Assembly (NCBI GenBank): GCA_963694095.1
Contig: CAVOCG010000001.1
Span: 9,663-73,662 of the forward strand
Reading direction: 5' to 3'
DNA: 64,000 nt
Source: Gammaproteobacteria bacterium
Lineage (GTDB): Bacteria > Pseudomonadota > Gammaproteobacteria > Pseudomonadales > Pseudohongiellaceae
Part shown: piece after piece, positions 16,393-51,675 of the stretch
How the letters are laid out: the number at the start of each line of letters is the position of its first letter
How positions within the stretch are numbered: position 1 is the stretch's first letter
Translations under genes and position numbers: made by a program
The notes under the pieces: generated by a model
What the model was told of the DNA's origin: nothing
The model's input: only the letters and a program-made list of their open reading frames with translations
Database searches by the model: none

Positions 16393-18117
16393 TCATTCGC
16401 CTGTGGTTACGGCATCACTGTCAGAATCAGTCTTATCCAGCGCTATTTCGCCGCGCTTTAGTTTCGACATTACTGACAACGCTTCCAGCATAACCATGAT
16501 ACTGGTGATCATTACCAGAACTTCTATTATTACCAGAACCCATTGTCCAGCTAGATAATGCTGCACGATATACCAGGCAGATGCCCAAAATGCCATGGCG
16601 AAGATAAAGATCATCGGTGCCAGAATGAATTTTGGAGATCGGCCCAACCGCAGAAGGTAGACAGAAATAAGCATCAGTGTCATCGCAGCCAAGATTTGAT
16701 TAGTTCCTCCGAATACAGGCCAGATCAAAGCACCGCCATCACCTGGGTAGCCCCCGGCAGAGACTCCGAACGCCAGCATCAAGCACGCGGCAATCGCTAG
16801 CAAAGTAGAGAGAATATTGTGTTTCAGGGCCTTAATATTATAAATATTCCCCCATTCCTGAATGATATAACGTTGTAGTCGTAATCCGGCATCCATTGTC
16901 GTGCCAGCGAACAGTACTACCATCACTGCAAGCATAGTTTGGGCAAAACTTATAGGTATTCCCCAGCCCGTAGAAATTAGGATGGCACCTCCGTCAATGA
17001 ACCCAGCCTGTCCCGGCCCACCAGAATAGCTCGAATAGATTGCGCTCCAGTCTGATCCAGTGGCGGCATAAAGCGAACCGGTAACCGCAACAATGGTGAT
17101 CAATGCTAAAGAACCTTCGCCTAGCGCCCCAAGGTAGCCTACAAAACGCGCGTCTTTTTCATTACTCAATTGCTTGGAGCTGGTGCCCGAGGACACGATC
17201 CCGTGAAACCCTGAAAGCGCGCCACAGGCGATTGTTACAAAAAGAATTGGGAACAACGGGGGTGTGCCTTCAGCAAGATTTGAATTAAATGCCGGTGCTG
17301 ATATTTCTGGCAGGGCAATAAATACAGCTGAGTATAGTACCAATAGACCCAACACCAGTTGAGCACCATTGATATAGTCGCGCGGTTGTAGCAACAGCCA
17401 AACCGGTAGCATTGAAGCGATACCGGCATAAACAAATAACAAGATGATCCAGTTACCGTTCGGTCCAAGACCAAAGATATCCCCGGGCAATTCCATGGGC
17501 ATCACACTGCCGATGTAAATTGAGAAATAAAGAATACTCACGCCAATAATTGAAATAAGCAATAAATTGTATTTCTTTCGAATTAAGACGCCAATGGCCA
17601 CTGCCACAGGGATTGCAACCCAGGCGGGGAAAACGGAAGACGGAAAAATGACCATGTCAGTTGCAATGATGGTGGCAAACATAGCGTTAACTAGCACCAA
17701 CAACAGGAAGATAATGACCATAAACAAAGCCGAAGCACGCTTGCCTATTACATCTGTCGATAGCGCTCCAATGGACTTTGCGCCATGTCGAGTACTTGCC
17801 CAAAGCGCACCCATATCGTGAACACCGGCGAAAAATATCGAGCCAAAGGTTACCCAAAGCAAAGCAGGCACCCATCCCCAGTAGACCGCTATAGCGGGAC
17901 CCACAATCGGTGCTGCACCAGCTACTGCGGTAAAATGCGCTCCCCAGAGCACAAATTTATTAGTTGGCACATAGTCCACACCGTCATCGATCCGGACCGC
18001 AGGAGTAACATAGTCTGGATCCAGCCGATAGATTTTTTCAGCAATGAATTTGGAGTAAACAAACCAACCAAATGAAAAACCGCACAGGCCGAAAATTACG
18101 ATAAATACCGAGGACAT
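16393..18117 (-). CDS. cstA: Carbon starvation protein A family transporter
   Basis: 574 aa, polytopic. The N-terminus is CstA-typical (YVPTNKFVLWGAHFTAVAGAAPIVGP). Confidence 0.85.
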   Translation of the reverse strand: MSSVFIVIFGLCGFSFGWFVYSKFIAEKIYRLDPDYVTPAVRIDDGVDYVPTNKFVLWGAHFTAVAGAAPIVGPAIAVYWGWVPALLWVTFGSIFFAGVHDMGALWASTRHGAKSIGALSTDVIGKRASALFMVIIFLLLVLVNAMFATIIATDMVIFPSSVFPAWVAIPVAVAIGVLIRKKYNLLLISIIGVSILYFSIYIGSVMPMELPGDIFGLGPNGNWIILLFVYAGIASMLPVWLLLQPRDYINGAQLVLGLLVLYSAVFIALPEISAPAFNSNLAEGTPPLFPILFVTIACGALSGFHGIVSSGTSSKQLSNEKDARFVGYLGALGEGSLALITIVAVTGSLYAATGSDWSAIYSSYSGGPGQAGFIDGGAILISTGWGIPISFAQTMLAVMVVLFAGTTMDAGLRLQRYIIQEWGNIYNIKALKHNILSTLLAIAACLMLAFGVSAGGYPGDGGALIWPVFGGTNQILAAMTLMLISVYLLRLGRSPKFILAPMIFIFAMAFWASAWYIVQHYLAGQWVLVIIEVLVMITSIMVMLEALSVMSKLKRGEIALDKTDSDSDAVTTGE

Positions 18118-18312: not shown

Positions 18313-20019
18313 TCAATTGCTTGGTTTGGCTGTGTGATAAGTCAAATACCCGATAAACATCTCATCCGAGCTCTGCAATCCAAATGTCACTTCGTGGCTA
18401 GGGTTCGGATTAGCGGGGTTAAATTCAGAATTATCGAATGCACCACTTACATGTACCCTGGTTCCTGCAGGCAATGCCATCGGCTTATCAAGTATATAGG
18501 TTGGTTGCCAAGCGTAACTGTAATTAGGCACACTTAATAAATCTGTCAGGGTGCCATCCTGCGCTTCTGCTGTGAATTTCATGTTTTTACCACGAAAGTG
18601 CATATGAGGCCGAAGACCAGTAACGACGATGTTTTCCTCGAAAACATAGGTAGCAGATGCTTTATGATCCTGAGCATAGGCAGGAATTCTAAATCGACTA
18701 GATACCGGCTGCGTGAAGCTCTCATACTTAGGCGGTTCTTCATACATGTATAGACCCAGCAAAGTTTCATCGGTAGCAACTAAGCCATTGCTGGTAAAAT
18801 GAAACTGCATGGACAAGTTGTGACCTTTAGGAATAAAAACGCCAGTCCCGTTAGGAAAGACCATGGCATCAACCTTGCCAGGGGCGTAGCCCTCAAGGAA
18901 ACGAGTAGCGATGGACCCTGTATTGGTTTTATCGCCATCAAATTCTTCTGCCGGTGCAGTTACATAAGTTAACAAATGGTGGAGTACAGACTCATCACCT
19001 GGAATAAATTGTACTGCGCGCACCCACTTGTCTTCTTCGAACGGGAGATCTACAGCGATATTGATGTAATCAAGCACACCGGTGGCTGGAACTTCCATCT
19101 TAGGCGCCTTAACGATGTAGTCAGGCTGGCCTAGTGTCCAGGTTTTCCAGTGTGGGGCCTCTAATTCGGTTAATGGATCGCTGGAATTGGTTCCGCGAGG
19201 AGAACCTGCATCAATCCAGTGGACAAGAGTTTGCAGGTCTTCATTGCTCAAATTGCGAGCATTGGAAAAATGACTAATATTCGGATCAACCTGAGCCGGT
19301 GGCATACGTTTGGTAAGCAATACCTCTCGAATGATAGGTGACCAACCCTGAAGCACTAAATGACTGTTCATAGCGAATGGCCCTATTCCACCTTCTCGAT
19401 GACAAGTGGCACACTGCTTGGTAATTATAGGAGCGACTTCAGTTGCATAATCGGGTGTGGTCTCTGCATGCAAATCCTTAACTGGGTAGGCAAGAGCGCA
19501 GCCTGCTGCTTCTACAATCAAAGTGCTATCTGCGGTTCCTGCTACCTCGGCCGACAGAGATTCGTCAAGCTGAGACTGCAACGGACCCCTATAAATCAGG
19601 GCTAAGCTCTCAGGATCAAGCACCACCACTTCGCCAGCCTTCGACAAATTCAATGTTTCCGAGACGACCTGAGCGTCATCCAACAGCAAGGGAATATCGA
19701 TTTGCCGTCTTGCTATTGCGCTGCGAGCATTTTCCAGATCAAGCTCAACTGAAGAATTGATTAGCAAGAAGTCAACATTTCTTGCTTCCCACTCCGATTG
19801 TTTGGCTTTGAATTGGGTGAGAAAAGAGTCAATTGAATTACAGCTGTCCGCAAAGGACATTATTACCAACGCCTCTTTATTTCGATAGCGGCTAAGTTGA
19901 TGAAAGTTGCCATCACTGTCTAACAACCCGAAATCGCCAATCCTGTTAGGCGCACCACTCGCACCCGCGGATAATGCGCCAACAAGCAGCAAAACTGCCA
20001 TCCAGTGCAATCGCTTCAT
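18313..20019 (-). CDS. Exported Trx-like / haem-c (CxxCH) / PHM-DBH-like copper monooxygenase fusion protein
   Basis: Has a signal peptide and one CATCH haem site in a PSCyt1-like context. The C-terminal part carries HH, H, HxH and M motifs (VLHHLL, MQFHF, PHMHFRG, SSDEMF). ATG at 20019 is preferred over the TTG at 20034. Confidence 0.7.
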   Translation of the reverse strand: MKRLHWMAVLLLVGALSAGASGAPNRIGDFGLLDSDGNFHQLSRYRNKEALVIMSFADSCNSIDSFLTQFKAKQSEWEARNVDFLLINSSVELDLENARSAIARRQIDIPLLLDDAQVVSETLNLSKAGEVVVLDPESLALIYRGPLQSQLDESLSAEVAGTADSTLIVEAAGCALAYPVKDLHAETTPDYATEVAPIITKQCATCHREGGIGPFAMNSHLVLQGWSPIIREVLLTKRMPPAQVDPNISHFSNARNLSNEDLQTLVHWIDAGSPRGTNSSDPLTELEAPHWKTWTLGQPDYIVKAPKMEVPATGVLDYINIAVDLPFEEDKWVRAVQFIPGDESVLHHLLTYVTAPAEEFDGDKTNTGSIATRFLEGYAPGKVDAMVFPNGTGVFIPKGHNLSMQFHFTSNGLVATDETLLGLYMYEEPPKYESFTQPVSSRFRIPAYAQDHKASATYVFEENIVVTGLRPHMHFRGKNMKFTAEAQDGTLTDLLSVPNYSYAWQPTYILDKPMALPAGTRVHVSGAFDNSEFNPANPNPSHEVTFGLQSSDEMFIGYLTYHTAKPSN

Positions 20020-20179
20020 ATCGGATGATTCCAATTAATTGTGTAAATGGACGGATATAAAATCAACTATCAATTGGTAAGTTGCCCAATGATCAGGGCA
20101 CCCTAAGTAGCATCAGCATCCTGGCACACGTATAAAGGAAGCAAGACACTCAAGCTGAACAGTCTAAATGGTTGCCCAC

Positions 20180-21568
20180 CTAATCGCCGGAGGTCACGGT
20201 TTCCTGCATCCGATATTGACTACCAACACCAATTAGCGAAAAACGCCTGAAGACCTCAAACATGACCCAGATAGCCCCGGCAATAATGATTGTCATCATC
20301 CCCCAACGCATCAGTGCAGCGAAAAACAATGAATCAAAGATCGGCATTTGAAATTGATACTGATTAAGCTGGTCGCCGCGATCCAGCATCCAATGCCATG
20401 CGCTGTGGGCAAGCAGAGCTGAAATCAAAATAGTGCCAACCCGTTCCTTAACAAAAACCTTAAACAACAAATTCAAAGCAGGAACAACCAACACAAGCAA
20501 CATGAGCTGCCCCAGTTCAACACCGACATTGAAGGCCAACAGTGATGAAAATAAGTGTCCCCCGGCGAATTGCAGCGTATCGCTGAACATAAATGAAAAA
20601 CCGAACCCATGGATCAAACCGAAGCCGAATGTCACCAGCCAGCGATGCTCAAGTTTTGCTCCTACTATATTCTCAAAAGCCATATACACAATAGAAAGGG
20701 CAATCAGCGTCTCAATCAAAGCTGGAAACCAGATCACATTGGGCGCCACACCAAATGCCGAACCTATGAGGGTGATAGAATGGGCTATAGTAAACGAAGT
20801 AATCACCGGAATTAGACGGCGAATACTCCGCAGCGGAATTACCAAACAAAATAGGAACAACAGATGATCAGCACCTTCCAGAATGTGCACGAAGCCCATT
20901 TTGATAAAGCGATAAACTGCTTGATACCAGCGCGGATCCAGTAACACTACCCCAGGGTTACCAAGGTAGTTAAATACACGCTCGGCGCCATTTTCCGGCA
21001 AAATAAATCGAAGCACCGTCGTGGTTGCACTGGATAACGTTCCTAATTGTGGGTCAACTGAAAAATCAGAGCTTTCAGAGTCAATCGAGTACCGCACCAG
21101 CACATCGAGCACTCCCTGCCGCCAAAACATATCCACATCATCACCCAGAGGCGGGCTTTGGACGTTAGCGAGTGCATCCTCGTAGCTGGTAAAGGATCGA
21201 TCCGAAGGAAGTGAAACCCGGGTCGCCAGCAACTCTTTATCCGTAAGCTCAACCTCATTTTCATAAAAATGCATGGATTCGGTAATGTACACCTGAGCCG
21301 CGTCACGTAGCGCGAACTCGGCTTCAGAGAACTGCAGATAGCCTGGGCCGCGTAACGGGAAACTAATTTCACCAAAAGCTTCCATAGGCACTCTAAGTAT
21401 TGCCGTTAGCTGGTTTCCCTCCGGTTTGACAAATGCATATACAGTGACACGGGATGGAATATCGTGGGCCGAACTGAATGTAGAGAGCAATAACAGCGAG
21501 ACTAGAGCCAATCCCTGCAGCAGTTTGGAGTAAGCGAAGAACGTAGTTGTTCGATGACTTATATTCAT
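20180..21568 (-). CDS. HupE/UreJ-family (type 2) metal permease with a large N-terminal periplasmic domain
   Basis: 462 aa. Signal peptide plus a ~220-aa soluble domain, then TM helices containing GFVHILEGADHLLFLF, the HupE/UreJ signature. Confidence 0.7.
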   Translation of the reverse strand: MNISHRTTTFFAYSKLLQGLALVSLLLLSTFSSAHDIPSRVTVYAFVKPEGNQLTAILRVPMEAFGEISFPLRGPGYLQFSEAEFALRDAAQVYITESMHFYENEVELTDKELLATRVSLPSDRSFTSYEDALANVQSPPLGDDVDMFWRQGVLDVLVRYSIDSESSDFSVDPQLGTLSSATTTVLRFILPENGAERVFNYLGNPGVVLLDPRWYQAVYRFIKMGFVHILEGADHLLFLFCLVIPLRSIRRLIPVITSFTIAHSITLIGSAFGVAPNVIWFPALIETLIALSIVYMAFENIVGAKLEHRWLVTFGFGLIHGFGFSFMFSDTLQFAGGHLFSSLLAFNVGVELGQLMLLVLVVPALNLLFKVFVKERVGTILISALLAHSAWHWMLDRGDQLNQYQFQMPIFDSLFFAALMRWGMMTIIIAGAIWVMFEVFRRFSLIGVGSQYRMQETVTSGD

Positions 21569-21607
21569 AGTTTACTACTATTTATTTTGATAATTGGACA
21601 ATTCGGG

Positions 21608-21742
21608 AATCACTAGTAATTCGGAAAACTTCCTAATCACTAGTGACAGCAAGGATTTTGAGTTATGTGACAAATTTTTACAGACACATCCACTACAAAT
21701 AAGTTGCGAGTATACTGCCTAGGTGGAAGTGAGTATACTGCC
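21608..21742. promoter_or_regulatory. Two pairs of direct repeats in a divergent promoter region
   Basis: AATCACTAGT occurs at 21608-21617 and 21635-21644. GAGTATACTGCC occurs at 21708-21719 and 21731-21742. Each repeat contains a 6-bp palindrome (ACTAGT, GTATAC). Confidence 0.35.
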
Positions 21743-21791
21743 AGCTTGCTCTGAAAGTGATATGGCTCGGGAAATGGGCATGTAGAGGGAA

Positions 21792-22988
21792 ATGAGAATG
21801 ACAAAATTAAAACTAATTATTGGTACTACCTTACTCGTAGCATTGGTTGCACTCGGCGTGGGCCAGTTCAGTATGCAGCAACCAGCAGCAGCGGCGAATA
21901 ATGATGTGCTGGCTCCCGCATTTCTAGTTGATCCTTTGTGGCCCAAACCCTTACCCAACCACTGGGTGATGGGCAGAACTATTGGTGTGGATGTTGATGA
22001 ACGAGACCATATTTTTGTGGTTCACCGGGACCAGGCGGAAATGTTTTCCATGAACACGGAAATTGGTCTGTTTGCAGGTGTTTCGGAGTGTTGCACACCC
22101 GCGCCACCAATTCTTGAATTTGATATTGATGGAAATCTGGTCAACGCCTGGGGCGGTGCAGTCGAAGGCGCCCCCTATGTGTGGCCTGCCTCCAACCACG
22201 GCATTGACGTGGCACCTAATGGTGATGTGTGGATAGGTGGTAATGGTGGCGGTGACTCACACGTACTGGTATTTTCCCGTGACGGCGAATACATCCGTAC
22301 CATAGGTGAACCAGGTAATGATCGTGACAGCAACAGCACCACTCACTTTTCCCAAGTCGCAGAAATCGGCATTGATGGTGCCAACAGCGAAGCCTACATA
22401 GCCGATGGCTACGGTAATAAGCGGGTTGTAGTCGTCGACCTGGCTACCGGCGCATTTAAGCGCTTCTGGGGTGCATACGGCAATACGCCATCTGACGATC
22501 GCCTGCGTTATACACCCGGTGAACCACTGCCACAGCAATTCACCGGACCGGTGCACTGTGCAGAACCCTCTAATGACGGTTTAGTATATGTGTGTGACAG
22601 AACCTCGGACCGCGTTCAGGTATTTCGTACTGACGGTACCTTCGTGAAAGAAGCCCAGTTCACACCCGCCACGCTTTCGCAGGGTTCCACCTGGGATATC
22701 TCCTTTTCAGCAGATACTGAGCAAGAATTCCTGTATCTTGCTGATGGTCAGAACTTCAAGATTTACGTCGTAGATCGTGAGTCGCTGGAAGTATTGTATA
22801 CATTTGGAGATGGCGGCAGACAGCCTGGCTTATTCTATGCCCCGCACAGTATCGCTACTGATTTGCAAGGCAATCTTTACACTACAGAGACCTATGAAGG
22901 TAAACGTGTGCAGAAATTCCTGTTCCAGGGAATGCGCCCTGTAACTGTTCGAGACCGCGCACCTACTTGGCCTGCAGACGAGCTATAA
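21792..22988 (+). CDS. Exported NHL beta-propeller, peptidyl-alpha-hydroxyglycine alpha-amidating lyase (PAL)-like
   Basis: 398 aa with a signal anchor. Block-wise resemblance to animal PAL: FVVHRDQ, NHGIDVAPNGDVWIGG, ADGYGNKRVVVVD, YVCDRTSDRVQVFR, APHSIATDLQGNLYTTE. Confidence 0.65.
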   Translation: MRMTKLKLIIGTTLLVALVALGVGQFSMQQPAAAANNDVLAPAFLVDPLWPKPLPNHWVMGRTIGVDVDERDHIFVVHRDQAEMFSMNTEIGLFAGVSECCTPAPPILEFDIDGNLVNAWGGAVEGAPYVWPASNHGIDVAPNGDVWIGGNGGGDSHVLVFSRDGEYIRTIGEPGNDRDSNSTTHFSQVAEIGIDGANSEAYIADGYGNKRVVVVDLATGAFKRFWGAYGNTPSDDRLRYTPGEPLPQQFTGPVHCAEPSNDGLVYVCDRTSDRVQVFRTDGTFVKEAQFTPATLSQGSTWDISFSADTEQEFLYLADGQNFKIYVVDRESLEVLYTFGDGGRQPGLFYAPHSIATDLQGNLYTTETYEGKRVQKFLFQGMRPVTVRDRAPTWPADEL

Positions 22989-23023
22989 TTAGCCCATATC
23001 TCCTGCGCCATCTGGATCTAAGA

Positions 23024-23062
23024 AAAAGCTGTGTCGAAGCACTTCGATGCAGCTTTTTTTGG
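23024..23062 (+). terminator. Intrinsic terminator after the first PAL-like gene
   Basis: AAGCTGTGTCGAAGCACTTCGATGCAGCTT hairpin followed by a T7 run. Confidence 0.75.
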
Positions 23063-23200
23063 CCCCATGCACAACCGCCGGTAATTCGTCTATTTCACCC
23101 TGAAATTTGTGAATTCCTGTTTACCCCCCCGCTCAATAGATGCTAGTGTATGTTTGTTAGGACTAGTTTCTTAAATTCAATAGCTATTCAGGACAATATT

Positions 23201-24388
23201 ATGCAAATCACAACAAAAAGAATAATCTATTCTGCTGTAGCCATTACCCTCCTGCTATCTCTCGGGTTTGGTCAAAGTCGATTACAAGATAACGCCATTG
23301 CAGCGAATAATGATCGACTGGCACCGCAATTTATTGTGGACCCCTATTGGCCACAGCCATTACCCAATCAGTGGGTACTTGGACGCGCCATCGGCGTTGG
23401 GGTGGACGAGCGAGATCATGTGTATATCGTACACAGGACCCAAGACAGCAATTTTATGAATCAGGAAATTGCCCTGAATTCAGGCAGAGCCGAGTGCTGC
23501 ACCCAAGCTCCGCCCATTATCGAATTTGACAGCGAAGGTAATCTTATAAATGCCTGGGGAGGCCCTGGTGAAGGCTATACCTGGCCTGAGTCCAACCATG
23601 GGTTAGAGATAGCACCTAATGGCGATATCTGGATTGGCGGAAATGGGGGCGGTGATTCCCATGTATTGGTCTTTACTCGTGATGGAACCTTCGTAAGAGA
23701 GATTGGTATCCCTGGCGAAGATATAAACAGTAATAGCCAGACTTCCTACGGGCGTGTCGCAGAAATTGCCTTTTATCCTGCAGCTAATGAGATGTATTTT
23801 GCGGATGGATATGGCAATAAAAGAGTAGCAGTAGTCGATGCATCAACAGGGGCATTCAAGCGTTATTGGGGTGCTTATGGTAACCGCCCCTCTGATGATC
23901 GAGTGACCTATACACCAGGCGAGACGCTTCCTCAGCAATTTGTTGGTCCGGTGCATTGCGCGGAGCCTTCACTTGATGACCTGATCTATGTATGTGACAG
24001 AGGGGCAGACAGGATTCAGGTTTTCCGCCCAGATGGAACTTTCGTCAAAGAAGCCTTGGTGGCTCCATTGACGCTGTCAGGTTCAACCTGGGATATTACT
24101 TTTTCCAGGGATGCGGATCAGGAATTCATCTTTGTTGCTGATGGCTCCAATATGAAAGTGCATATCCTTGATCGAGACTCACTTGAAGTCCTCAGCACAT
24201 TTGGTCAGGGCGGCAGGCAGCCTGGCACTTTCTTCGCGCCTCACAGCATTGTATCTGACTCCAAAGGGGATCTTTACACTACCGAGACGTACGAAGGAAA
24301 GCGGGTGCAGAAATTTCTAAATCAAGGTTTACTCCCATTGAGCACCGCAAGATCAGGTGCACCATGGCCAGCCAATGAACTGAATTGA
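23201..24388 (+). CDS. Exported NHL beta-propeller, PAL-like (tandem paralogue)
   Basis: Collinear with 21792-22988 (IVHRTQD, ADGYGNKRVAVVD, YVCDRGADRIQVFR, APHSIVSDSKGDLYTTE). ATG at 23201 gives a signal peptide. An alternative ATG lies at 23150. Confidence 0.65.
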   Translation: MQITTKRIIYSAVAITLLLSLGFGQSRLQDNAIAANNDRLAPQFIVDPYWPQPLPNQWVLGRAIGVGVDERDHVYIVHRTQDSNFMNQEIALNSGRAECCTQAPPIIEFDSEGNLINAWGGPGEGYTWPESNHGLEIAPNGDIWIGGNGGGDSHVLVFTRDGTFVREIGIPGEDINSNSQTSYGRVAEIAFYPAANEMYFADGYGNKRVAVVDASTGAFKRYWGAYGNRPSDDRVTYTPGETLPQQFVGPVHCAEPSLDDLIYVCDRGADRIQVFRPDGTFVKEALVAPLTLSGSTWDITFSRDADQEFIFVADGSNMKVHILDRDSLEVLSTFGQGGRQPGTFFAPHSIVSDSKGDLYTTETYEGKRVQKFLNQGLLPLSTARSGAPWPANELN

Positions 24389-24468: not shown

Positions 24469-24903
24469 CTAATTTGGATTCACGGCTAACCAGGTTATCC
24501 CGCTGAGTATTGAGTTTCTGCTGGGCAGCTCTTCACTTCCCGCTGGAAATGTATTCTTCTCCATGACAAAGGCGAGTATATCTACCTTTTCCGAACGCCT
24601 GACCGCCCCGGCATTGCCCAAAGGCATGGTGTCTCGAATGCGTTGAAACAAGGTTGCCACAGGCATTCCATCATAATTCCATATGAAATCTCCCTGGGCC
24701 AGCCCGGGGGCCATATCAATCCCAGCCAGAGACGCACCATGACATTCAGAACAACTTTCCCCATAGGCAACTTCGCCTCGCCTAGCTTGTTCCTCGGTAA
24801 ACACGCCATCCCACACTGACGGGGCTTGCTGTGCAATCACCCAGTGGAAACTGGTAACAACAATAGAGAGTATTCCTAAGGACAGCAAAATTCTGCTTTT
24901 CAT
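24469..24903 (-). CDS. Small periplasmic mono-haem c-type cytochrome
   Basis: 144 aa with a signal peptide and a single CSECH motif. Confidence 0.75.
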   Translation of the reverse strand: MKSRILLSLGILSIVVTSFHWVIAQQAPSVWDGVFTEEQARRGEVAYGESCSECHGASLAGIDMAPGLAQGDFIWNYDGMPVATLFQRIRDTMPLGNAGAVRRSEKVDILAFVMEKNTFPAGSEELPSRNSILSGITWLAVNPN

Positions 24904-25033: not shown

Positions 25034-25852
25034 TCAATTACATCCCAGTTCCTGTTCCAGGCTTTCATTGGGAAGCTGCCCCAGTGCAGGAAAGAAATCC
25101 AAGTCGGTTAATTCCTCAACTTCCTCAACAGAGCTTAATTGTTGACAGTGGTGTATATGTATTGGCAAATCCTGTTCAAATATAAACGTCGAATTACTGC
25201 CTTGTTCAGAAATAAGTATTTTATAAAATGCATCCGGCACCCTATGTGGCATATTTGTTGGCAATTGCCGGGGTTCACTTTCCGAACGAAAAATTGGCCC
25301 GGTTAATACATAAATTGGCCCTTCACGATTAACCAGATTTCTCACTGCCCATTCAAGCCCATACCAGGCTCCCCTGTTCAGGGCAGAACTACGAGCCACA
25401 ATATTTGTCAAATAATTAACGTCACTCCAATACGGCGTGCCTGCAAAACTAACCATTGGCACGAAAGCTGAAAGACCCAAGTCGTTATCCTCCTCTGGAA
25501 TGCCAAAATCTGCTGCATCGAGAGTATCATCAACAAAGCCGTCCTCGACTGCTTCCCGGGACAAGCTGGTAGCTATCCCAATAGAATCTACACTGACTTT
25601 ATATGCCACCCAATCTGCAACCTTGTTCTCGTAATTGTAGGCAAGTGCATAGATCGATCTAATCACCAGTTGTGCGTTCGGCGACGCGCCAGTTGGACAC
25701 CCGAACAAGCAATGCGTTATATGCAATTCGCTTGCTGTTGTTGAATTGATTGTAAGCATGAAGAACAACGCTAAAGGAACCCGCAGAAAACACCCTGAAT
25801 TGAAACTCAGATTGCACTGCTCTGATCGATGCTTGCCTGATACTTTACTCAT
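25034..25852 (-). CDS. Exported DNA/RNA non-specific endonuclease (NucA)-like protein lacking the DRGH catalytic motif
   Basis: Collinear with Serratia NucA blocks (YALAYNYENKVADWVAY, NYLTNIV, LNRGAWYGLE). The DRGH position reads DLGL. Confidence 0.6.
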   Translation of the reverse strand: MSKVSGKHRSEQCNLSFNSGCFLRVPLALFFMLTINSTTASELHITHCLFGCPTGASPNAQLVIRSIYALAYNYENKVADWVAYKVSVDSIGIATSLSREAVEDGFVDDTLDAADFGIPEEDNDLGLSAFVPMVSFAGTPYWSDVNYLTNIVARSSALNRGAWYGLEWAVRNLVNREGPIYVLTGPIFRSESEPRQLPTNMPHRVPDAFYKILISEQGSNSTFIFEQDLPIHIHHCQQLSSVEEVEELTDLDFFPALGQLPNESLEQELGCN

Positions 25853-28259: not shown

Positions 28260-29618
28260 ATGAAATTATTAATTTCCTCGCCCCGCCTGGTTATACTCTT
28301 TATTTATTCTTTACTGCTTTCCTGTGGCGAAGATACCCCTATAGCAGGCGCGAATAGTACGTCCACAGCCCAGCAATCTGAAAGTACGGAGTCTGAACAG
28401 GCGTTAATAGCAAGGGTGCGGGGAATTCACGAGCGGGTTATTACACTCGATACCCATGCGGATATTAACACCAGCAATTTCACGCCAAATAATAACTACA
28501 CTATGGATTTGGATACCCAAGTCACACTGCCTAAAATGGAGGCAGGTGGGCTGGATGTAGCCTGGTTTATTGTTTTCACCGGCCAGGGAACCCTGGACGC
28601 AGCCGGTTACGCTACAGCCTATGCCAATGCAATCGATAAATTTAACGCCATACACCGCCTGGCTGAAGAAATAGCACCCGACCAAATCGAGATTGCGTTT
28701 ACCTCAGATGACGTAAGGAGAATTAATGCTTCTGGTAAAAAAATTGCCATGATCGGAATTGAAAATGCCTATCCGGTCGGCTTGGATATGAGCAATATTA
28801 AAGATTTTCATGATCGTGGCGGCCGCTATATGTCGCTGGCGCATAATGGCCATAGCCAATTTTCTGATTCCAATACTGGAGAAAGAGATGGCGTGTGGTT
28901 GCACAACGGCCTTAGCCAAATGGGGCGCGATGCTGTATTAGAAATGAACAAATGGGGCATCATGGTTGATATCTCACACCCCTCTAAAGAGGCCATCATG
29001 GAGATGCTTGATCTTACGCAAGCGCCACTGATTGCGTCCCATTCTTCAGCTCGAGCAGTAAGCGAACACAGTCGCAATCTGGATAATGAACAGCTTCTAC
29101 GAATCAAGGAAAATGGAGGCGTAGTACAAACAGTTGCGTTCAAAAGCTACTTGAATGCGGGAAAAAACACGCGTAATGCCGAAGCCCTGTCTCGTCTAAA
29201 TGAAAGCATTGCTGCAGATTTAGGGTATGAAATACTTTCATTTCCAGAAAGGAACAGGCTGAATGCTGCTGACCGAGCAATCTATAATTCCCAAATGGAC
29301 GAAATTAGCCAACTGGCTGCCCCTAGAATAATAAGCGAGGTAAATACTATTGCACCGCCAGTTAATGTGGCTGACTTCGTGAATCACATCGACTACCTTG
29401 TTGAACTTATCGGAATTGAGCACGTTGGAATTAGTTCAGACTTCGACGGTGGTGGTGGCATCCAAGGTTGGAATAGTGCTTCTGAAAGTCTTAATGTCAC
29501 GCTTGAACTCGTGAAACGAGGTTACAGCGAAGCAGATATTGGTTTATTGTGGAGCGGCAATCTATTGAGAGTGCTGGACGATGTGCAGCGGATTGCTGCT
29601 GAATTACAAAGGCAATAA
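28260..29618 (+). CDS. Membrane dipeptidase (peptidase family M19), lipoprotein
   Basis: 452 aa with a lipobox-like LLLSCG. M19 blocks present: LDTHADI, LAHNGHSQF, VDISHPS, IASHSSAR, SSDFDGGGG. Confidence 0.85.
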   Translation: MKLLISSPRLVILFIYSLLLSCGEDTPIAGANSTSTAQQSESTESEQALIARVRGIHERVITLDTHADINTSNFTPNNNYTMDLDTQVTLPKMEAGGLDVAWFIVFTGQGTLDAAGYATAYANAIDKFNAIHRLAEEIAPDQIEIAFTSDDVRRINASGKKIAMIGIENAYPVGLDMSNIKDFHDRGGRYMSLAHNGHSQFSDSNTGERDGVWLHNGLSQMGRDAVLEMNKWGIMVDISHPSKEAIMEMLDLTQAPLIASHSSARAVSEHSRNLDNEQLLRIKENGGVVQTVAFKSYLNAGKNTRNAEALSRLNESIAADLGYEILSFPERNRLNAADRAIYNSQMDEISQLAAPRIISEVNTIAPPVNVADFVNHIDYLVELIGIEHVGISSDFDGGGGIQGWNSASESLNVTLELVKRGYSEADIGLLWSGNLLRVLDDVQRIAAELQRQ

Positions 29619-36735: not shown

Positions 36736-38307
36736 TTAGCTCTGATCAAGTGTGTATGCCACAGCCTGGTCCAACTTACCCGCTGCCATTTGTTCTCTTT
36801 CTTGTTGAATGTAGTCTGACCTTACGCCCATTACGTTTGAATAACGGATGGTGTAATGAATTTTATTTTGAGCTATTAATTCCTCTGACAAATCTCTGTC
36901 ATAGGCAACCAGGTCATCCCGTTCTGCCAGCCACGTGCTTCGATCCATTGCTTCTACTTTGTCTACCAATTTTCTGTAAATCGGCGCACAGTCCCATTTA
37001 GTTTCAGCATTTACGTACCAGTTACACAAGCTGCTTAGCTTATCCAGAAAAAGATCATGTTCAGGTCCAAAGTTTAGACAGGAACCATCGAAGTAATTCC
37101 CTTTTCCTGACATCTTCGATTCATCTATTAGTGGCTTGGCTATTTCATAGCCGGCCGTGCCCTTAAAGGGGAAAAATAATGCCCACCTAAATCTGCCCAT
37201 TTCCACTTCTGCACAGAGCCTTATGGTTTCCATAATTTCATCGCGAGATTCATAGGGCAAGCCAAACATGACGAAAGCAGAACTGTGTAATTCAAAGGCA
37301 TGGGCGGCATGAAAAGACCGCACAATTTGTTCGTTTTTCATGTAGCGCTTTAACACTTCCCTGCGAACTCTAGCAGAGCCTGATTCGAGTCCAAACTTGA
37401 CAATAATACAGCCGGCCGCCTTAAGTGCACTGGCCGCGGTTTCTTCGAAACAGTTTACATGTCCGTTTACTACAAAAGGGATATTAACTTTATGTTCAAT
37501 ATACGCATCACAAAATTTAATAACGTAATCAGTATTCAGCGTAAATAAATCATCATCAAAAATAAATGTGTTTATTTGCGGATTTTCATTTTTAAGTTTT
37601 TTCAAATCATTCATCATTACATCGATAGGAAAATGCCGAAGAAAGTCTTTAACATTTTTTGCCGCGCCGTCTTTAATATATTGATCAACAATTTCAATAT
37701 TAAAGCAATAGGTACATTTGTAAGGACAACCTCTCGAAGTCAATATCCCCATCCAACCTCGGGTTTCTTCCATAACTGCTTCCATATCAAAAACGTTATA
37801 GTCCAGAGGCGGCAGTTTATCTAAATCCGGAAAGGGCGCGACCGGATTAACTACAGGGACATCTCCTATCCAAGATCGGAAATTAGCCAGCATTTGCGTT
37901 GGTTTTCCATTTTCTAACGCATCCATTAATTCAAGTAAGGCGTAGTCGCCTTCTCCCACACAAACATAATCAAATAATTTGGATTTATGTACTTCATCAG
38001 GAACCATGGTGCAGTGAACGCCACCGATTACCTGAACAAATTCAGGCATTTCAAGCCGAATTGCCTTGCTCATGCCCACAATCCAGTCATATTGCTGCGA
38101 CATGGCGGAGAAGCCAATTAGCCCCGGATTTGTACGTTTTATGTAAGCAATAAGCTCTTCACTGCTTGGCACAGGCTCATATTTCTCAGATACATGCATA
38201 AGGTCCAGTTCGTGGCCATTGGCGTGGAGTACACCCGCCAGAGAGGCAATGCCATGATTGGTTCCCAAGGGAGCATCTATTTGTGGGTAAACCATTAAAA
38301 TCTTCAC
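36736..38307 (-). CDS. B12-binding-domain radical SAM enzyme
   Basis: 523 aa. An N-terminal cobalamin-binding-type Rossmann domain is followed by a CPYKCTYC (CxxxCxxC) cluster motif. Confidence 0.8.
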   Translation of the reverse strand: MKILMVYPQIDAPLGTNHGIASLAGVLHANGHELDLMHVSEKYEPVPSSEELIAYIKRTNPGLIGFSAMSQQYDWIVGMSKAIRLEMPEFVQVIGGVHCTMVPDEVHKSKLFDYVCVGEGDYALLELMDALENGKPTQMLANFRSWIGDVPVVNPVAPFPDLDKLPPLDYNVFDMEAVMEETRGWMGILTSRGCPYKCTYCFNIEIVDQYIKDGAAKNVKDFLRHFPIDVMMNDLKKLKNENPQINTFIFDDDLFTLNTDYVIKFCDAYIEHKVNIPFVVNGHVNCFEETAASALKAAGCIIVKFGLESGSARVRREVLKRYMKNEQIVRSFHAAHAFELHSSAFVMFGLPYESRDEIMETIRLCAEVEMGRFRWALFFPFKGTAGYEIAKPLIDESKMSGKGNYFDGSCLNFGPEHDLFLDKLSSLCNWYVNAETKWDCAPIYRKLVDKVEAMDRSTWLAERDDLVAYDRDLSEELIAQNKIHYTIRYSNVMGVRSDYIQQEREQMAAGKLDQAVAYTLDQS

Positions 38308-42436: not shown

Positions 42437-44917
42437 TTAGACTACTTGGGCAAGATTATTCAATCGTTTGTTGGTTTGCAACTTGCCTGCAGATGAGTTT
42501 TCAATTTCCGCAAGTCGCCCAGCACTGAATGCCGCATTACGACGTTCCTCAGATACATTTCCATACAGCGTGTTTCGCATTCGAGGCACTCTTCCCATAT
42601 TACGAATGGTTTCTTCAATTAACCCCGGAGACCATTCCTGTCCGTGGTCGGCACCAGCAGCCCGCGTAATGCTTTCATTCATTAAGGTTCCCCCTAAGTC
42701 ATTAGCACCAGAATTCAAACAGGCCTTAACTCCCTCAGCACCCATCTTTACCCAGGATGACTGGATATTAGAAATCAGCCCATGGAACACCAGACGCGCT
42801 ACAGCATGCATTAAGATTGCTTCCCGAAAGCTAGGGCCACGACGCGATCTACCCTTTAAATATAACGGGGCTTCCATGTGAACGTAAGGCAGTGGAACAA
42901 ATTCGGTAAACCCACCGGTTTGTTGTTGCAACTGCCTAACATGCAGTAAATGGCTAGCCCAGTGTTGTGGCGTATCAATATGCCCATACATAATAGTGGC
43001 GGTAGTATTAAACCCCACCTTGTGGGCTACCTCCATGACTTGCAACCATTCTGCCGTATTTAACTTGTCCGGACAGATTTGTTTGCGTACATCGTCATGT
43101 AAGATCTCAGCGGCAGTACCAGGCAATGTGTTCAGCCCCGCGCTCTGTAAGCGTTGCAGGAATTCCTCCAGCCCGATTCCCAGAGTGGCAGCCCCCTGCC
43201 AAACCTCCAGCGGTGAAAAGGCATGGATATGCATGTCGGGCACGGACTCGCGGACCGTATGTACTATGTCCAGATAAGTTTGGCCGGTGTAATCTGGGTG
43301 AATGCCCCCTTGCATACACACCTCTGTTGCACCTCGAGCCCAAGCCTCATTGCACCTTCTGGAAACTTCCTGTGCACTGATATCATAGGGTCGTCCACGC
43401 AAGTTCTCGCTGAATTTTCCTTTGGAAAAGGCGCAAAACTGACATTTAAAATAACAAACATTGGTGTAATTTATATTGCGATTAACTACGTAGCTAACCT
43501 CATCACCATTAACCTGTTGTCGAAGCAAGTCAGCCTGTTGGGTGATATAAGAAAAATCTGCACCCCGACTCTCGAATAATCGGGCAACTTCGTCCAGCTC
43601 GAGCGGAGCCTGCGCTACACATTTCTCTACAATTTTTCCAACATCCCTAGTTACTGATTCCTTCTTTGCCGGTTTATCTATCAGCCGAACCTCTGCGAGA
43701 GGAACCGCCTGAATTGCACCCGGAGTCCAGTCGTCTCGTCGAGCAAAGCCACTGCCGTCACTTTGGTTCAAAACTGAAAGTTGCACAGCAGAATCCAACC
43801 AGCGTTCGGGGTTAGCAGCAAATCGAGGGTAGATCGTCAGTCTTTGTTCCAGAAACTTGCCCGCGACCTGAGATTCGTTGGCTAATTTGTCCAAGTGTGG
43901 CCAAGGCGCTTCGGGATTCACATGGTCCGGTGTCAGCGGCGACACGCCGCCCCAGTCATTTATACCTGCAGCCACCAATTGCGGCAATACACCAGGACTA
44001 AGATTGGGTGGTGCCTGAATATTCATTTCGGCTCCAAAAATCAACCTTGTCACCGCGATTGTCCACAGCAAATCATTCAAATCCGGTTCCGGAGACTGGG
44101 CCATCTTGGTATTTTGTTTGGCACGGAAATTTTGCACGATGATTTCCTGAATGTGCCCATGACGCTCATGCAATGTACGCAGTAGCAATAGCGACTCGAT
44201 CCGCTCCTGTCTGGTCTCGCCAATTCCTATCAGAATTCCGGAGGTGAAAGGCACTGAAGCCTGACCTGCCAGATCAATGGTTTTTAACCGAATGGATGGT
44301 TTTTTATCGGGTGAGCCATAATGTGGCATACCCTTCTCACACAACCGCGATGAGGCAGATTCCAACATAATCCCCATGGAGGCACTGACTTTTCGAGCGG
44401 CGGCGATCTCATCACCCGTCATGCAGCCTGCATTTATATGAGGCAACAAGCTCGTTTCGGCCAATATTCTTCGCGCTACCTCGTTTACATAATCCAGTGT
44501 GGTGGCAAACCCTAAGTCATCCAGAGCCTGCCGTGACGCTTTATAACGCAGTTCGGGTTTTTCACCCAACGTGAGCAAGGCTTCCTGACATCCGGCTTCA
44601 GCACCCTGTAGGCAAAGCTCCAACACCTCCTCGATCTGCATGTACGGTTGGGGGAGCTTTTTCGGAGTTTGGGCAAAGGTGCAATAGTGGCAAACGTCAC
44701 GGCACAGATGCGTCAGAGGAATAAAAACTTTACGAGAATAAGTAATTATATTGCGATGATACTGATCACGCAGAGCGCCAGCAGCATCAACCAATGTCGC
44801 GGTGTCGTCACAATCAGCCAGAGCCAATGCCTGGTCTTCATTTAATCTGTCGCCCGAAAGCGATATGTCTTGCAAACCGTGTCTCTCAATAATGTGCTGA
44901 ATTGCGCGTATCCGCAA
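42437..44917 (-). CDS. fbiC: Bifunctional FO synthase (7,8-didemethyl-8-hydroxy-5-deazariboflavin synthase, CofG+CofH fused)
   Basis: 826 aa. Two radical-SAM halves with CRDVCHYC and CYFKCQFC clusters, matching FbiC length and architecture. TTG start. Confidence 0.82.
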   Translation of the reverse strand: MRIRAIQHIIERHGLQDISLSGDRLNEDQALALADCDDTATLVDAAGALRDQYHRNIITYSRKVFIPLTHLCRDVCHYCTFAQTPKKLPQPYMQIEEVLELCLQGAEAGCQEALLTLGEKPELRYKASRQALDDLGFATTLDYVNEVARRILAETSLLPHINAGCMTGDEIAAARKVSASMGIMLESASSRLCEKGMPHYGSPDKKPSIRLKTIDLAGQASVPFTSGILIGIGETRQERIESLLLLRTLHERHGHIQEIIVQNFRAKQNTKMAQSPEPDLNDLLWTIAVTRLIFGAEMNIQAPPNLSPGVLPQLVAAGINDWGGVSPLTPDHVNPEAPWPHLDKLANESQVAGKFLEQRLTIYPRFAANPERWLDSAVQLSVLNQSDGSGFARRDDWTPGAIQAVPLAEVRLIDKPAKKESVTRDVGKIVEKCVAQAPLELDEVARLFESRGADFSYITQQADLLRQQVNGDEVSYVVNRNINYTNVCYFKCQFCAFSKGKFSENLRGRPYDISAQEVSRRCNEAWARGATEVCMQGGIHPDYTGQTYLDIVHTVRESVPDMHIHAFSPLEVWQGAATLGIGLEEFLQRLQSAGLNTLPGTAAEILHDDVRKQICPDKLNTAEWLQVMEVAHKVGFNTTATIMYGHIDTPQHWASHLLHVRQLQQQTGGFTEFVPLPYVHMEAPLYLKGRSRRGPSFREAILMHAVARLVFHGLISNIQSSWVKMGAEGVKACLNSGANDLGGTLMNESITRAAGADHGQEWSPGLIEETIRNMGRVPRMRNTLYGNVSEERRNAAFSAGRLAEIENSSAGKLQTNKRLNNLAQVV

Positions 44918-45046: not shown

Positions 45047-45856
45047 ATGATCTGGAATTTCAGGGTGTGGTTAAAGCTGGCCTTGTTATTAGAACTACTG
45101 GTCATTGGCCTATGGGGCTTCGCCGCATCCGCACAGGATGCAGGAAACCTTTACGATACGGCAGTCGATGTCCGCCTTGGTGAGCGTTATTTTCAGCGTC
45201 AATGTACCCGCTGCCATGGTGAAGACGCAAAAGGCAACGATGAGACTGGCGCACCTGATTTAACGGGGAGGCTTTCCCGGGCCAGCACCGTTGCAGGTAT
45301 TTATAGAATCCTGCGCGAGGGAATAGCTGGCACAGCGATGCTTCCCTTAAGCCCAGACACACCGGATCCAACTGTTTGGCAACTGGTAGCTTACGTCGAT
45401 TCACTAAGCACAGACCCTGCCAATATCAACCTGCCGGGCTCCGCTTCAAACGGTCAGACCCTTTATGCAAGTAAAGGTGGCTGTAGCACCTGCCACATGA
45501 TCCGTGGCAACGGTGGCAGACTCGGACCGGATCTAAGCCGGGTTGGCGAGCGTCGTGACCCAGATGAGTTAATGTCAGACATTGTCAGTCCGCATGAAGA
45601 AGTACTGCCGCGCTGGTGGACAGTCAAGGCGTTACTCGAGAATGGCTCCACGGTCGAAGGACTCAGAATGAATGAAGACACATTCACATTGCGGGTCATC
45701 GATCGAAATTCAGAATTGTGGTCATTACCCAAGAATCAAATAGCGTCCTTCGAGCGCATTCAGAGCTCGACCATGCCAAGCTACTTACAGACACTAGCCG
45801 AGAGCGAGTTAGACGACCTGGTTGCCTATCTCTTCTCTTTGCGAAAGGAGAATTAA
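45047..45856 (+). CDS. Exported di-haem c-type cytochrome
   Basis: ATG at 45047 lies 4 nt after a GGAGG SD. Has a signal peptide and two CxxCH sites (CTRCH, CSTCH). Confidence 0.8.
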   Translation: MIWNFRVWLKLALLLELLVIGLWGFAASAQDAGNLYDTAVDVRLGERYFQRQCTRCHGEDAKGNDETGAPDLTGRLSRASTVAGIYRILREGIAGTAMLPLSPDTPDPTVWQLVAYVDSLSTDPANINLPGSASNGQTLYASKGGCSTCHMIRGNGGRLGPDLSRVGERRDPDELMSDIVSPHEEVLPRWWTVKALLENGSTVEGLRMNEDTFTLRVIDRNSELWSLPKNQIASFERIQSSTMPSYLQTLAESELDDLVAYLFSLRKEN

Positions 45857-45858
45857 TC

Positions 45859-51456: not shown

Positions 51457-51675
51457 TTGGGAGTAAATCCTATGTTTTAAGGAAAGCCTCAGCTTATCCA
51501 CCTTTGACAGTGAAGACAAACACCGAGTTTAACTGATCAGCCAAAATACTTAGAAGCATTTTGACATGCACCAATTTGGGCCGCCGCGGGTAAGCAGAAC
51601 TAGTAACCTTCAATGGGCGAGCTTTTCAAGAGCATTGGGAGATGCGAGTTAGCGCCATGTTTTACAAAAGCCACA

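Follow-up and report, generated by a model that had tools for sequence, protein, structure and literature searches.

Tandem PAL-like propeller genes beside an anglerase-type permease and PHM-like copper monooxygenases in a Pseudohongiellaceae genome: a possible split PAM-like pathway

The NHL locus

A stretch of 64,000 nucleotides from a Pseudohongiellaceae genome (Gammaproteobacteria bacterium, GenBank assembly GCA_963694095.1, contig CAVOCG010000001.1, positions 9,663 to 73,662; hereafter the window) contains two tandem genes for NHL-repeat propellers, termed NHL-1 and NHL-2, at window positions 21792-24388. They lie between two genes for PHM-like copper monooxygenases, PHM1 and PHM2, and are divergent to a gene for a metal permease of the HupE/UreJ-2 type. 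The original prediction for this locus, made from the sequence alone, was a split bacterial analogue of PAM, the enzyme in which PHM (peptidylglycine alpha-hydroxylating monooxygenase) is fused to PAL (peptidyl-alpha-hydroxyglycine alpha-amidating lyase). PAM has been described as the sole peptide-amidating enzyme and is treated as a eukaryotic invention. The main features of the locus are as follows.

18313-20034, minus strand: PHM1, predicted-exported fusion of three domains: AhpC/TSA-like (degenerate), cytochrome c (CxxCH) and PHM-like two-copper monooxygenase
20180-21568, minus strand: HupE/UreJ-2 permease, anglerase-type; 462 amino acids; HupE_UreJ_2 domain (PF13795, E 8e-40); signal peptide
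21569-21791, no strand: divergent intergenic region with two AGTATACT palindromes and an inverted repeat with 17-nucleotide arms
21792-22988, plus strand: NHL-1, predicted-exported six-bladed NHL propeller of the PAL superfamily; 398 amino acids; R79, H136, Y207, H255, R270 and H352
23150-24388, plus strand: NHL-2, tandem paralogue of NHL-1; 412 amino acids as listed; the same six residues
26182-27918, plus strand: PHM2, with redoxin-like, cytochrome c and PHM-like domains

NHL-1 and NHL-2 are 65% identical. The listed open reading frame (ORF) of NHL-2 begins 17 codons before Met18 (23201), which is the likely start because both the signal peptide and the homology to NHL-1 begin there; this start gives a protein of ~395 amino acids. 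Both proteins have Sec-type signal peptides ending in AxA (Ala-x-Ala), as read from the sequence, in agreement with the two exported paralogues of ~395 amino acids that had been proposed.

Pfam detects NHL repeats and weak matches to generic propeller families only in NHL-1 and NHL-2, and the sole NCBIfam match is ScyF (NF035926; E 1.6e-20). Like the window proteins, ScyF, which functions in scytonemin biosynthesis, is an exported bacterial NHL propeller; membership in its family was rejected, as the score of 74 bits is far under the cut-off of 350 bits. The nearest relatives (up to 95% identity) are found in marine Gammaproteobacteria and in metagenome-assembled genomes of Pseudohongiellaceae. 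In public databases, relatives are named hypothetical, 'YncE' or 'YvrE', and none of the members of the clade to which the window proteins belong has a PAL annotation. The family comprises >8000 clusters at the 90% level and 688 representatives with E < 1e-30 at 50% clustering. NHL-1 and NHL-2, which are predicted to be periplasmic, belong to a large clade of bacterial proteins in the PAL superfamily that has no name as yet.

Relationship of NHL-1 and NHL-2 to PAL

For comparison with PAL, a profile of 33 diverse members of the NHL family (A1) was aligned by hhalign with rat PALcc and with ExiPAL, the PAL of Exiguobacterium, which converts peptidyl-hydroxyglycine to the amide in vitro. The ExiPAL sequence was taken from the supplement of PMC9155641. 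The rat PALcc sequence was recovered from HMMER alignments via a chimeric query; rat PAM numbering corresponds to the chain index of 3fvz plus 491, an offset that puts Tyr654, His690, Arg706 and His786 of rat PAL in the right places. A1 aligns in register over all six blades both with ExiPAL (99.7% probability, E 1.8e-26) and with rat PALcc (99.6% probability, E 7.5e-25), the span on NHL-1 being residues 49-379. In a phmmer search of the PDB, rat PALcc (3fvz) is the sole chain that spans the whole propeller (query 61-368, chain 24-311, E 4.6e-10). TRIM and Thin NHL domains outscore PAL in both phmmer and profile searches of the PDB; this rank order is misleading because these repeat-rich domains gain their scores through multiple repeat matches.

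The AlphaFold2 model of NHL-1 (pLDDT 87) is a six-bladed propeller with four-stranded blades, and its best Foldseek match is the PAL structure 3fvz (E 1.5e-18), with the generic NHL domains of Thin and TRIM71 close behind by TM-score. In this model, the innermost strands of blades 2, 4 and 6 begin at H136, H255 and H352. The six key residues of NHL-1 correspond to those of the two known lyases as listed.

R79, motif VHRDQ: rat PAL Arg533; ExiPAL, aligned Arg in YLHRGD (no published number)
H136, motif NHGID: rat PAL Zn ligand His585; ExiPAL H95
Y207, motif ADGYGNKR: rat PAL Tyr654; ExiPAL Y178
H255, motif GPVHC: rat PAL Zn ligand His690; ExiPAL H210
R270, motif VCDR: rat PAL Arg706; ExiPAL R225
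H352, motif APHS: rat PAL Zn ligand His786; ExiPAL H309

The residues published for ExiPAL (H95, Y178, H210, R225 and H309) are those aligned to NHL-1, and roles in catalysis have been described for Y178 and R225 (PMC10900485). The six columns are kept in 120 of 120 close relatives, in 99-106 of ~106 ORFs from genome loci, and at ~83-94% in the representatives at 50% identity, which are often fragmentary (His triad, ~83-87%). The annotated bacterial PALs, as a family, show no variation in these six columns. Arg533, the counterpart of R79, is also said to have a role in PAL.

These results agree with the original prediction in most points: all motif pairs that it had drawn between the two propellers and rat PAL align in the same way, the catalytic Tyr (ADGYGNKR), the Zn-binding His residues of GPVHC and APHS and the catalytic Arg (VCDR) are confirmed by hhalign, and the profile comparison finds the three His, the Tyr and the Arg of the PAL core. 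One assignment has to be changed. The His of FVVHRDQ had been taken for a Zn ligand, but this motif carries R79, the Arg533 equivalent, and its His varies (H/Q/N/T) across the family; Zn ligand His585 of rat PAL is the His of PHGLSID, which is aligned to NHGIDV (H136).

The window encodes a further NHL protein, which serves as an internal control.

50332-51519, minus strand: third NHL-repeat protein; 395 amino acids; Teneurin-NHL/NHL Pfam matches

This protein gives no in-register alignment with PAL and does not have the catalytic residues, which marks it as a generic NHL protein rather than a PAL-like one. The alignments and the model thus place NHL-1 and NHL-2 within the PAL superfamily, with its catalytic constellation complete as judged from sequence. 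Both proteins would be metal-dependent C-N lyases, and their likely substrate would be an alpha-hydroxyglycine-type carbinolamide with a free carboxylate, which would be cleaved to an amide and glyoxylate. A reading as lactonases (Pfam SGL) was discarded, as the SGL matches are sub-threshold and the active site is of the PAL type.

Like the PAL core of rat PAM (3FVZ/3FW0), the window proteins are six-bladed NHL propellers with equivalents of His585, His690, His786, Tyr654, Arg706 and Arg533 and a shared D-G-Y-x-N-x-R motif. Unlike rat PAL, which is fused to PHM and a membrane anchor, they are free-standing, bacterial and predicted to be periplasmic; in addition, they have Ser in place of Asp787 and bear extra loops, including one with a conserved vicinal Cys-Cys pair and an insert of 20-30 residues before the second His. 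PALs of the ExiPAL type are likewise bacterial and single-domain and have the same six invariant residues, but they form a separate clade (~25% identity) and keep the Ca-ligand Asp.

The vicinal pair of NHL-1, Cys100-Cys101 (22089-22094; E-C-C-x-P-A-P-P), is located in a low-confidence loop of blade 1. Of 379 family sequences, 291 have Cys at the position of Cys100, and neither rat PAL nor ExiPAL has a Cys aligned with it. The pair could be a vicinal disulfide or an additional metal site.

The divergent permease and the shared intergenic region

The gene directly across the divergent promoter had been taken for a PHM-like monooxygenase gene. This position is occupied by the HupE_UreJ_2 gene, and PHM1 is located one gene further on the same strand. 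The permease consists of a periplasmic beta-sandwich of ~180 residues followed by a His-rich transmembrane domain with invariant His, Asp and Glu. Its mature N-terminus is H-[DE]-[IV]-P, with His1 first after the signal peptide, in 62 of 62 sequences (A-H-[DE]-[IV]-P with the preceding Ala), and reads H-D-I-P in the window. The anglerase-HupE/UreJ-2 study (Nat Commun 2025, PMC12537917) reported that His1 of such a periplasmic beta-sandwich binds Cu2+ or Ni2+ and proposed that metal capture by the anglerase feeds the permease.

The AlphaFold2 model of the window permease has an overall pLDDT of 53 and is poor in the membrane part (N-domain, 65-87). When this mediocre N-domain model was used in Foldseek, the best match was Cu-bound RbAng-1a (9gce; E 7.5e-6, TMt 0.55), followed by the Zur-regulated Zn binders ZrgA and PA4063. 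A search of the PDB with the HupE profile, at the sequence level, gave no match. The window permease shares with RbAng-1a (9GCE) the signal peptide, invariant His1, beta-sandwich and HupE_UreJ_2 domain; the structural match of its N-domain is modest, and this domain has no PDB match at the sequence level. As judged from sequence features and the N-domain model, the permease has the anglerase-HupE/UreJ-2 architecture. The anglerase paper (PMC12537917) describes neither a partnership with a PAL-like propeller nor the AGTATACT putative operator.

The intergenic region shared by the permease gene and NHL-1 contains the perfect palindrome AGTATACT (GAGTATACTG) at 21709-21716 and 21732-21739, the two copies being 23 bp apart and ~55 bp upstream of the NHL-1 start codon. 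A total of 51 AGTATACT sites are present in 1.32 Mb of related loci, all of them in the HupE-NHL intergenic position. It is present in 32 loci of several phyla, and its carriers lie within the sets L001-L023, L030-34, L039, L052, L065-67 and L071, with two copies in Pseudohongiellaceae-type loci and one in several distant lineages. As AGTATACT is confined to this intergenic position, it is a conserved putative operator for a regulator of the HupE-NHL pair, and probably functions as such. We know of no convincing match to AGTATACT among the Zur, Fur, NikR, RcnR and CueR operators.

The same intergenic region contains an inverted repeat with 17-nucleotide arms (TCACTAGTAATTCGGAA / TTCCTAATCACTAGTGA) at 21610-21646, nearer the start of the HupE-like gene; among the relatives, only the closest (L001 and L004) share its ACTAGT core. 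A scan of the locus for promoters and terminators is uninformative because the counts were no better than those in shuffled sequence.

PHM-like copper monooxygenases

PHM1 and PHM2 are 37% identical. Pfam Cu2_monoox_C detects PHM1 (26.7 bits, cut-off 23) and gives no match for the PHM-like region of PHM2. In an alignment of 13 PHM-like sequences (A3; numbering one lower than in the full ORF), C207, C210 and H211 of the CxxCH motif and H351, H352, H411, H476, H478 and M558 are invariant. The fusion of the PHM half to a cytochrome, as originally described, thus holds for both PHM1 and PHM2, and the second PHM-like gene does start 1.8 kb downstream of the NHL pair, at 26182. When A3 was aligned by hhalign with rat PHMcc (sequence from the supplement of PMC9155641), both subdomains were aligned (83% probability, E 9.5e-6), and H351, H352, H411, H476, H478 and M558 fell on the Cu ligands H107, H108, H172, H242, H244 and M314 of PHM (PMC12164859). 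All six Cu ligands are present in PHM1 and PHM2; on these alignments, both truly belong to the PHM superfamily and have cytochrome c fused to them.

In PHM, the substrate carboxylate binds Arg240, with Tyr318 and Asn316 as secondary contacts (PMC12164859). Sequences of the PHM1 type have the Arg240 equivalent in 53 of 53 cases and the Tyr318 equivalent in 52 of 52. Only PHM1 looks suited to a carboxylate-terminated, glycine-like substrate, because PHM1 keeps this Arg and Tyr and PHM2 does not. Like members of the PHM/DBH/TBM family, PHM1 and PHM2 have six Cu ligands over both subdomains, and PHM1 also has the Arg240/Tyr318 equivalents. Unlike them, the window proteins are bacterial and predicted to be periplasmic, begin with a redoxin-like domain that has no conserved Cys, followed by a domain of the c-type cytochrome kind, would use cytochrome c instead of ascorbate as the presumed donor, and do not keep Asn316.

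The AhpC/TSA-like domain, which forms the N-terminal ~170 amino acids of PHM1 and PHM2, is probably non-catalytic because it has no conserved Cys; it is absent from a shorter PHM-like subtype (L024, L026, L027, L055 and L061). Some marine contigs without NHL genes (L128, L139, L141 and L143) encode PHM1-like paralogues of ~50% identity in which the CuM ligands are swapped (His242 to Arg, His244 to Asn) and Met314, Arg240 and Tyr318 are retained. These paralogues may be degenerate or re-purposed; the contigs also bear tandem arrays of the short subtype with Gln, His and Trp at the substrate-contact positions.

Partners of the NHL clade in other genomes

The neighbourhood of NHL genes was compared in 80 genome loci, each a 20-kb stretch, with NHL relatives of 54-94% identity from Gammaproteobacteria, Gemmatimonadota, Acidobacteriota, Woeseiaceae and Kordiimonadaceae. 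A1 was too divergent as a query for genome loci, and a second alignment (A2) was used instead. Gene presence in GC-rich loci was taken from tblastn and hidden Markov model matches, ORF clustering being contaminated by antisense ORFs.

A HupE-like gene is located immediately upstream of NHL in 66 of the 80 loci. Of the other 14 loci, 6 have <1.3 kb of sequence on the upstream side, so that the figure becomes 66 of 74 informative loci. The HupE-like gene is divergent to NHL in all loci but one, and the pair spans at least three phyla (Pseudomonadota, Gemmatimonadota and Acidobacteriota).

PHM-like genes were found within 10 kb of NHL in 27 of the 80 loci, including ~19 of 24 Pseudohongiellaceae-type loci. 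In a HupE-less sister group (L024-L027), 3 of 4 loci have a PHM-like gene within this distance, which in L024 lies 45 bp after NHL on the same strand. Five distant loci with a PHM-like gene (L055, L061, L070, L072 and L079) are all from Acidobacteriota. Outside the Pseudohongiellaceae-type lineage, NHL-adjacent PHM-like genes are of the different subtype with Gln, His and Trp/His.

From the PHM side, 80 metagenome loci were retrieved with the PHM-like profile. PHM1 orthologues of at least 55% identity are adjoined by HupE and NHL in 31 of 31 informative metagenome loci; the other PHM-like loci had only major facilitator superfamily transporters and beta-lactamase-like genes as neighbours, which gave no functional clue. 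Linkage of PHM and PAL is therefore strict in one orthologous group; elsewhere it recurs but is loose, and most of the clade does not show it. Neither HupE nor PHM-like neighbours were seen for ExiPAL-type genes in three contexts (Exiguobacterium, Veronia and Prosthecobacter) or for a 40%-identical NHL relative (P0141). No PHM-NHL fusion was present among the 10 long or multi-domain representatives (of the top 150) scanned with Pfam; NHL fusions with FAA hydrolase, SGL and periplasmic binding protein were set aside as probably merged gene calls.

Neighbouring genes

Four further genes flank the core of the locus.

16393-18117, minus strand: CstA-family transporter (a family for the uptake of pyruvate and peptides), on the strand of PHM1 and downstream of it
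24469-24903, minus strand: small periplasmic cytochrome c, directly after NHL-2
25034-25852, minus strand: non-specific endonuclease, between the small cytochrome c and PHM2
28260-29618, plus strand: M19 membrane dipeptidase, after PHM2

PHM1 follows the permease gene on the same strand after 145 bp, and the CstA gene is next, so that HupE, PHM1 and CstA appear to form one same-strand gene string headed by the permease. Synteny of the CstA gene is kept within the lineage; CstA-family proteins carry pyruvate and peptides (PMC7730263, PMC5847655). In other phyla, the family of the small cytochrome c is found beside pyrroloquinoline quinone (PQQ) dehydrogenases at the HupE-NHL pair. The order after NHL-2 is cytochrome c, endonuclease, PHM2, M19 dipeptidase and cupin.

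In relatives from Pseudohongiellaceae (L007-L023), the genes downstream of PHM2 encode an Amidohydro_3 amidohydrolase, a penicillin-amidase-family acylase and a gamma-glutamyltranspeptidase, forming an island of amide-bond enzymes where the window has the M19 dipeptidase and the cupin.

Interpretation of the locus

The best explanation of the comparative results is an ancestral unit that consists of the NHL lyase and the divergent anglerase-HupE/UreJ-2 metal-capture permease under the shared AGTATACT putative operator. A lineage-specific, split PAM-like two-step pathway may have been built on this older lyase-permease module; we assign this reading a probability of roughly 0.4. In the first step, PHM1 would hydroxylate X-NH-CH2-COO- at C-alpha, with cytochrome c in place of ascorbate as the presumed electron donor. 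In the second step, the NHL lyases would split the hydroxylated product to X-NH2 (amide) and glyoxylate through metal- and Tyr-assisted C-N cleavage of the carboxylate-bearing carbinolamide. The permease would serve the metal economy of the Cu and Zn-type enzymes, and CstA might, as a speculation, import the 2-oxoacid (glyoxylate) or peptide products. Gly-ended peptides, N-acylglycines and other glycine conjugates are candidate substrates.

The pattern of PHM-PAL linkage, read from gene order, is compatible with functional coupling. Of the originally proposed split analogue of PAM, the intact PAL site, the PHM Cu ligands and the linkage in 31 of 31 loci stand, whereas the linkage is weak beyond the lineage and the permease is the main partner. 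The split pathway is plausible but not proven, because the metal permease is the most faithful partner across phyla. A fuller form, in which bacteria would have a complete PAM-type pathway of separate periplasmic enzymes with a co-regulated anglerase permease and a CstA-type importer, is put forward more tentatively. If true, it would provide the first example of amidation or oxidative deglycination as a natural bacterial process, and both halves of eukaryotic PAM would have a candidate source in prokaryotes.

Several observations weigh against the two-step pathway. Across phyla, it is the metal permease and not the PHM-like gene that most faithfully accompanies NHL: of ~52 distant NHL loci, only 5 have a PHM-like gene within 10 kb, and the Gemmatimonadota loci and many of those from Acidobacteriota have none, so that the co-occurrence that had been expected to support the pathway is found in the PHM1 group and is largely lost beyond it. 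In ~15 distant loci, a PQQ dehydrogenase and the small cytochrome c family are located beside HupE instead, and PHM-like homologues of <55% identity carry HupE and NHL in only 2 of 12 informative loci. As the linkage is strict only within one orthologous group, it might be inherited synteny. Likewise, AGTATACT is found solely before HupE and NHL, with none upstream of PHM2, and co-transcription of HupE, PHM1 and CstA is deduced from strand and spacing.

The residues of both enzyme types also give points on this side. Identity of the NHL proteins to proven PALs is only 23-25% (23% to rat PAL), and the Ca2+-ligand Asp787 (ExiPAL D310), which is present in 99 of 117 ExiPAL-type proteins, is Ser353 in NHL-1 and NHL-2 and Ser in most of the clade. 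The Asn316 equivalent is missing even in the PHM1 type (Ile or Met), the PHM2 type has Gly, Phe and Phe at the Arg240, Tyr318 and Asn316 positions (29 of 29), and the NHL-adjacent PHM-like genes of L024, L026 and L055 have Gln, His and Trp (His in L055) without the Arg/Tyr pair. The original prediction had also pointed to the small cytochrome c and the M19 dipeptidase nearby; both genes are present, but the dipeptidase is near NHL in only 4 of the 80 loci, without synteny, and is probably incidental. Lack of synteny ruled out the dipeptidase and the cupin as pathway members. Bacterial PAL-like propellers are not new in themselves, because active ones are known, patented and in use (US patent 9,096,843 B2; ExiPAL, PMC10900485, PMC9155641), and 'peptidyl-alpha-hydroxyglycine alpha-amidating lyase family protein' is a wide bacterial annotation.

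Alternatively, the functional unit may be the PAL-like propeller and the anglerase-HupE/UreJ-2 permease, with the PHM-like genes as lineage-specific bystanders that share a need for copper. In such a metal-economy module, the propeller might destroy an aminocarboxylate or glycine-like ligand or a metallophore, thereby freeing Cu, Ni or Zn for the anglerase His1 and import; alternatively, the metal supply of the propeller itself might be coupled to the permease. The immediately upstream, divergent HupE-like gene in 66 of 74 informative loci, the H-[DE]-[IV]-P terminus in 62 of 62 permeases, the resemblance of the N-domain model to Cu-bound RbAng-1a and then to ZrgA and PA4063, the metal capture proposed to feed the permease (PMC12537917), the presence of AGTATACT exclusively between the two genes in 32 loci from several phyla and the lack of PHM-like genes in most distant loci are all consistent with this explanation. 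However, HupE-type permeases import metal to the cytoplasm, which is no obvious service to a periplasmic enzyme, and the kept substrate-carboxylate Arg residues and catalytic Tyr point to a specific organic substrate, as in PAL. Furthermore, no metallophore genes are nearby, confidence in the HupE model is low beyond its N-domain, and the sister group L024-L027 keeps NHL and PHM-like genes without HupE. We rate a metal-economy module as somewhat less likely than the split pathway.

It is more unlikely that NHL-1 and NHL-2 are stand-alone PAL-like lyases, or related hydrolases, that act with interchangeable periplasmic oxidoreductases (PHM-like here; PQQ dehydrogenase and cytochrome c in Gemmatimonadota and others) or on spontaneous glyoxylate-amide adducts and form no specific PAM analogue. 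The PQQ dehydrogenase (PF01011, E 5e-163) and small cytochrome c by HupE in ~15 non-Pseudohongiella loci, the same cytochrome c after NHL-2, two PQQ dehydrogenases elsewhere in the window and ExiPAL-type PALs without any oxygenase neighbour would fit such enzymes, as would the weak SGL/lactonase matches; but PQQ dehydrogenases make no carbinolamides, their association is seen in only about a quarter of distant loci, the SGL matches are under Pfam thresholds, and the active site is PAL-like, not lactonase-like. That the proteins are non-catalytic NHL binding propellers which resemble PAL by shared fold only is very improbable: Thin and TRIM71 are nearly equal by TM-score and higher in sequence searches, and sources name relatives 'YncE' or 'YvrE', but the near-invariant polar columns are exactly the six catalytic and ligand residues of PAL, the PAL alignment is in register over six blades where TRIM-type matches are repeats, and the third NHL protein of the window is out of register and without these residues.

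Compared with known systems, three features are new as judged from sequence: a separate, unannotated PAL clade in which the Ca-ligand Asp is missing; an almost obligate association of this clade with an anglerase permease and a conserved putative operator; and the occurrence of its genes in clusters with PHM-like oxygenases that are fused to cytochrome c and include one type with the glycine-carboxylate pair. Literature searches turned up no account of a PHM-PAL gene cluster in bacteria, and the present locus is the first genomic context found here that places a PAL-like clade beside PHM-like copper oxygenases. The natural function of bacterial PALs has been stated as unclear (PMC10900485). 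As an oxygenase with the glycine-carboxylate pair and a built-in cytochrome c is encoded beside genes of the PAL-like clade, roles of bacterial PAL- and PHM-like proteins become directly testable; glycine conjugates that form part of marine dissolved organic nitrogen, such as N-acylglycines and Gly-ended peptides, are candidate substrates. Irrespective of the oxygenases, the propeller, the anglerase-HupE permease and the AGTATACT putative operator make up a conserved two-gene module that occurs in at least three phyla, has no described function and ties the newly described anglerases to a specific enzyme partner.

Other genes of the window

The flanking genes are housekeeping genes, namely those for EF-Tu, pantothenate kinase and BirA. 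Genes for a B12-binding radical SAM protein and a large radical SAM/CofH-like protein (36736-38307 and 42437-44917, minus strand) adjoin heptosyltransferase genes and are unrelated to the NHL locus. The two PQQ-dependent dehydrogenases and a TonB-dependent receptor are encoded at 45718-47493 (plus strand), 59538-61571 (minus strand) and 56715-58898 (plus strand), respectively.

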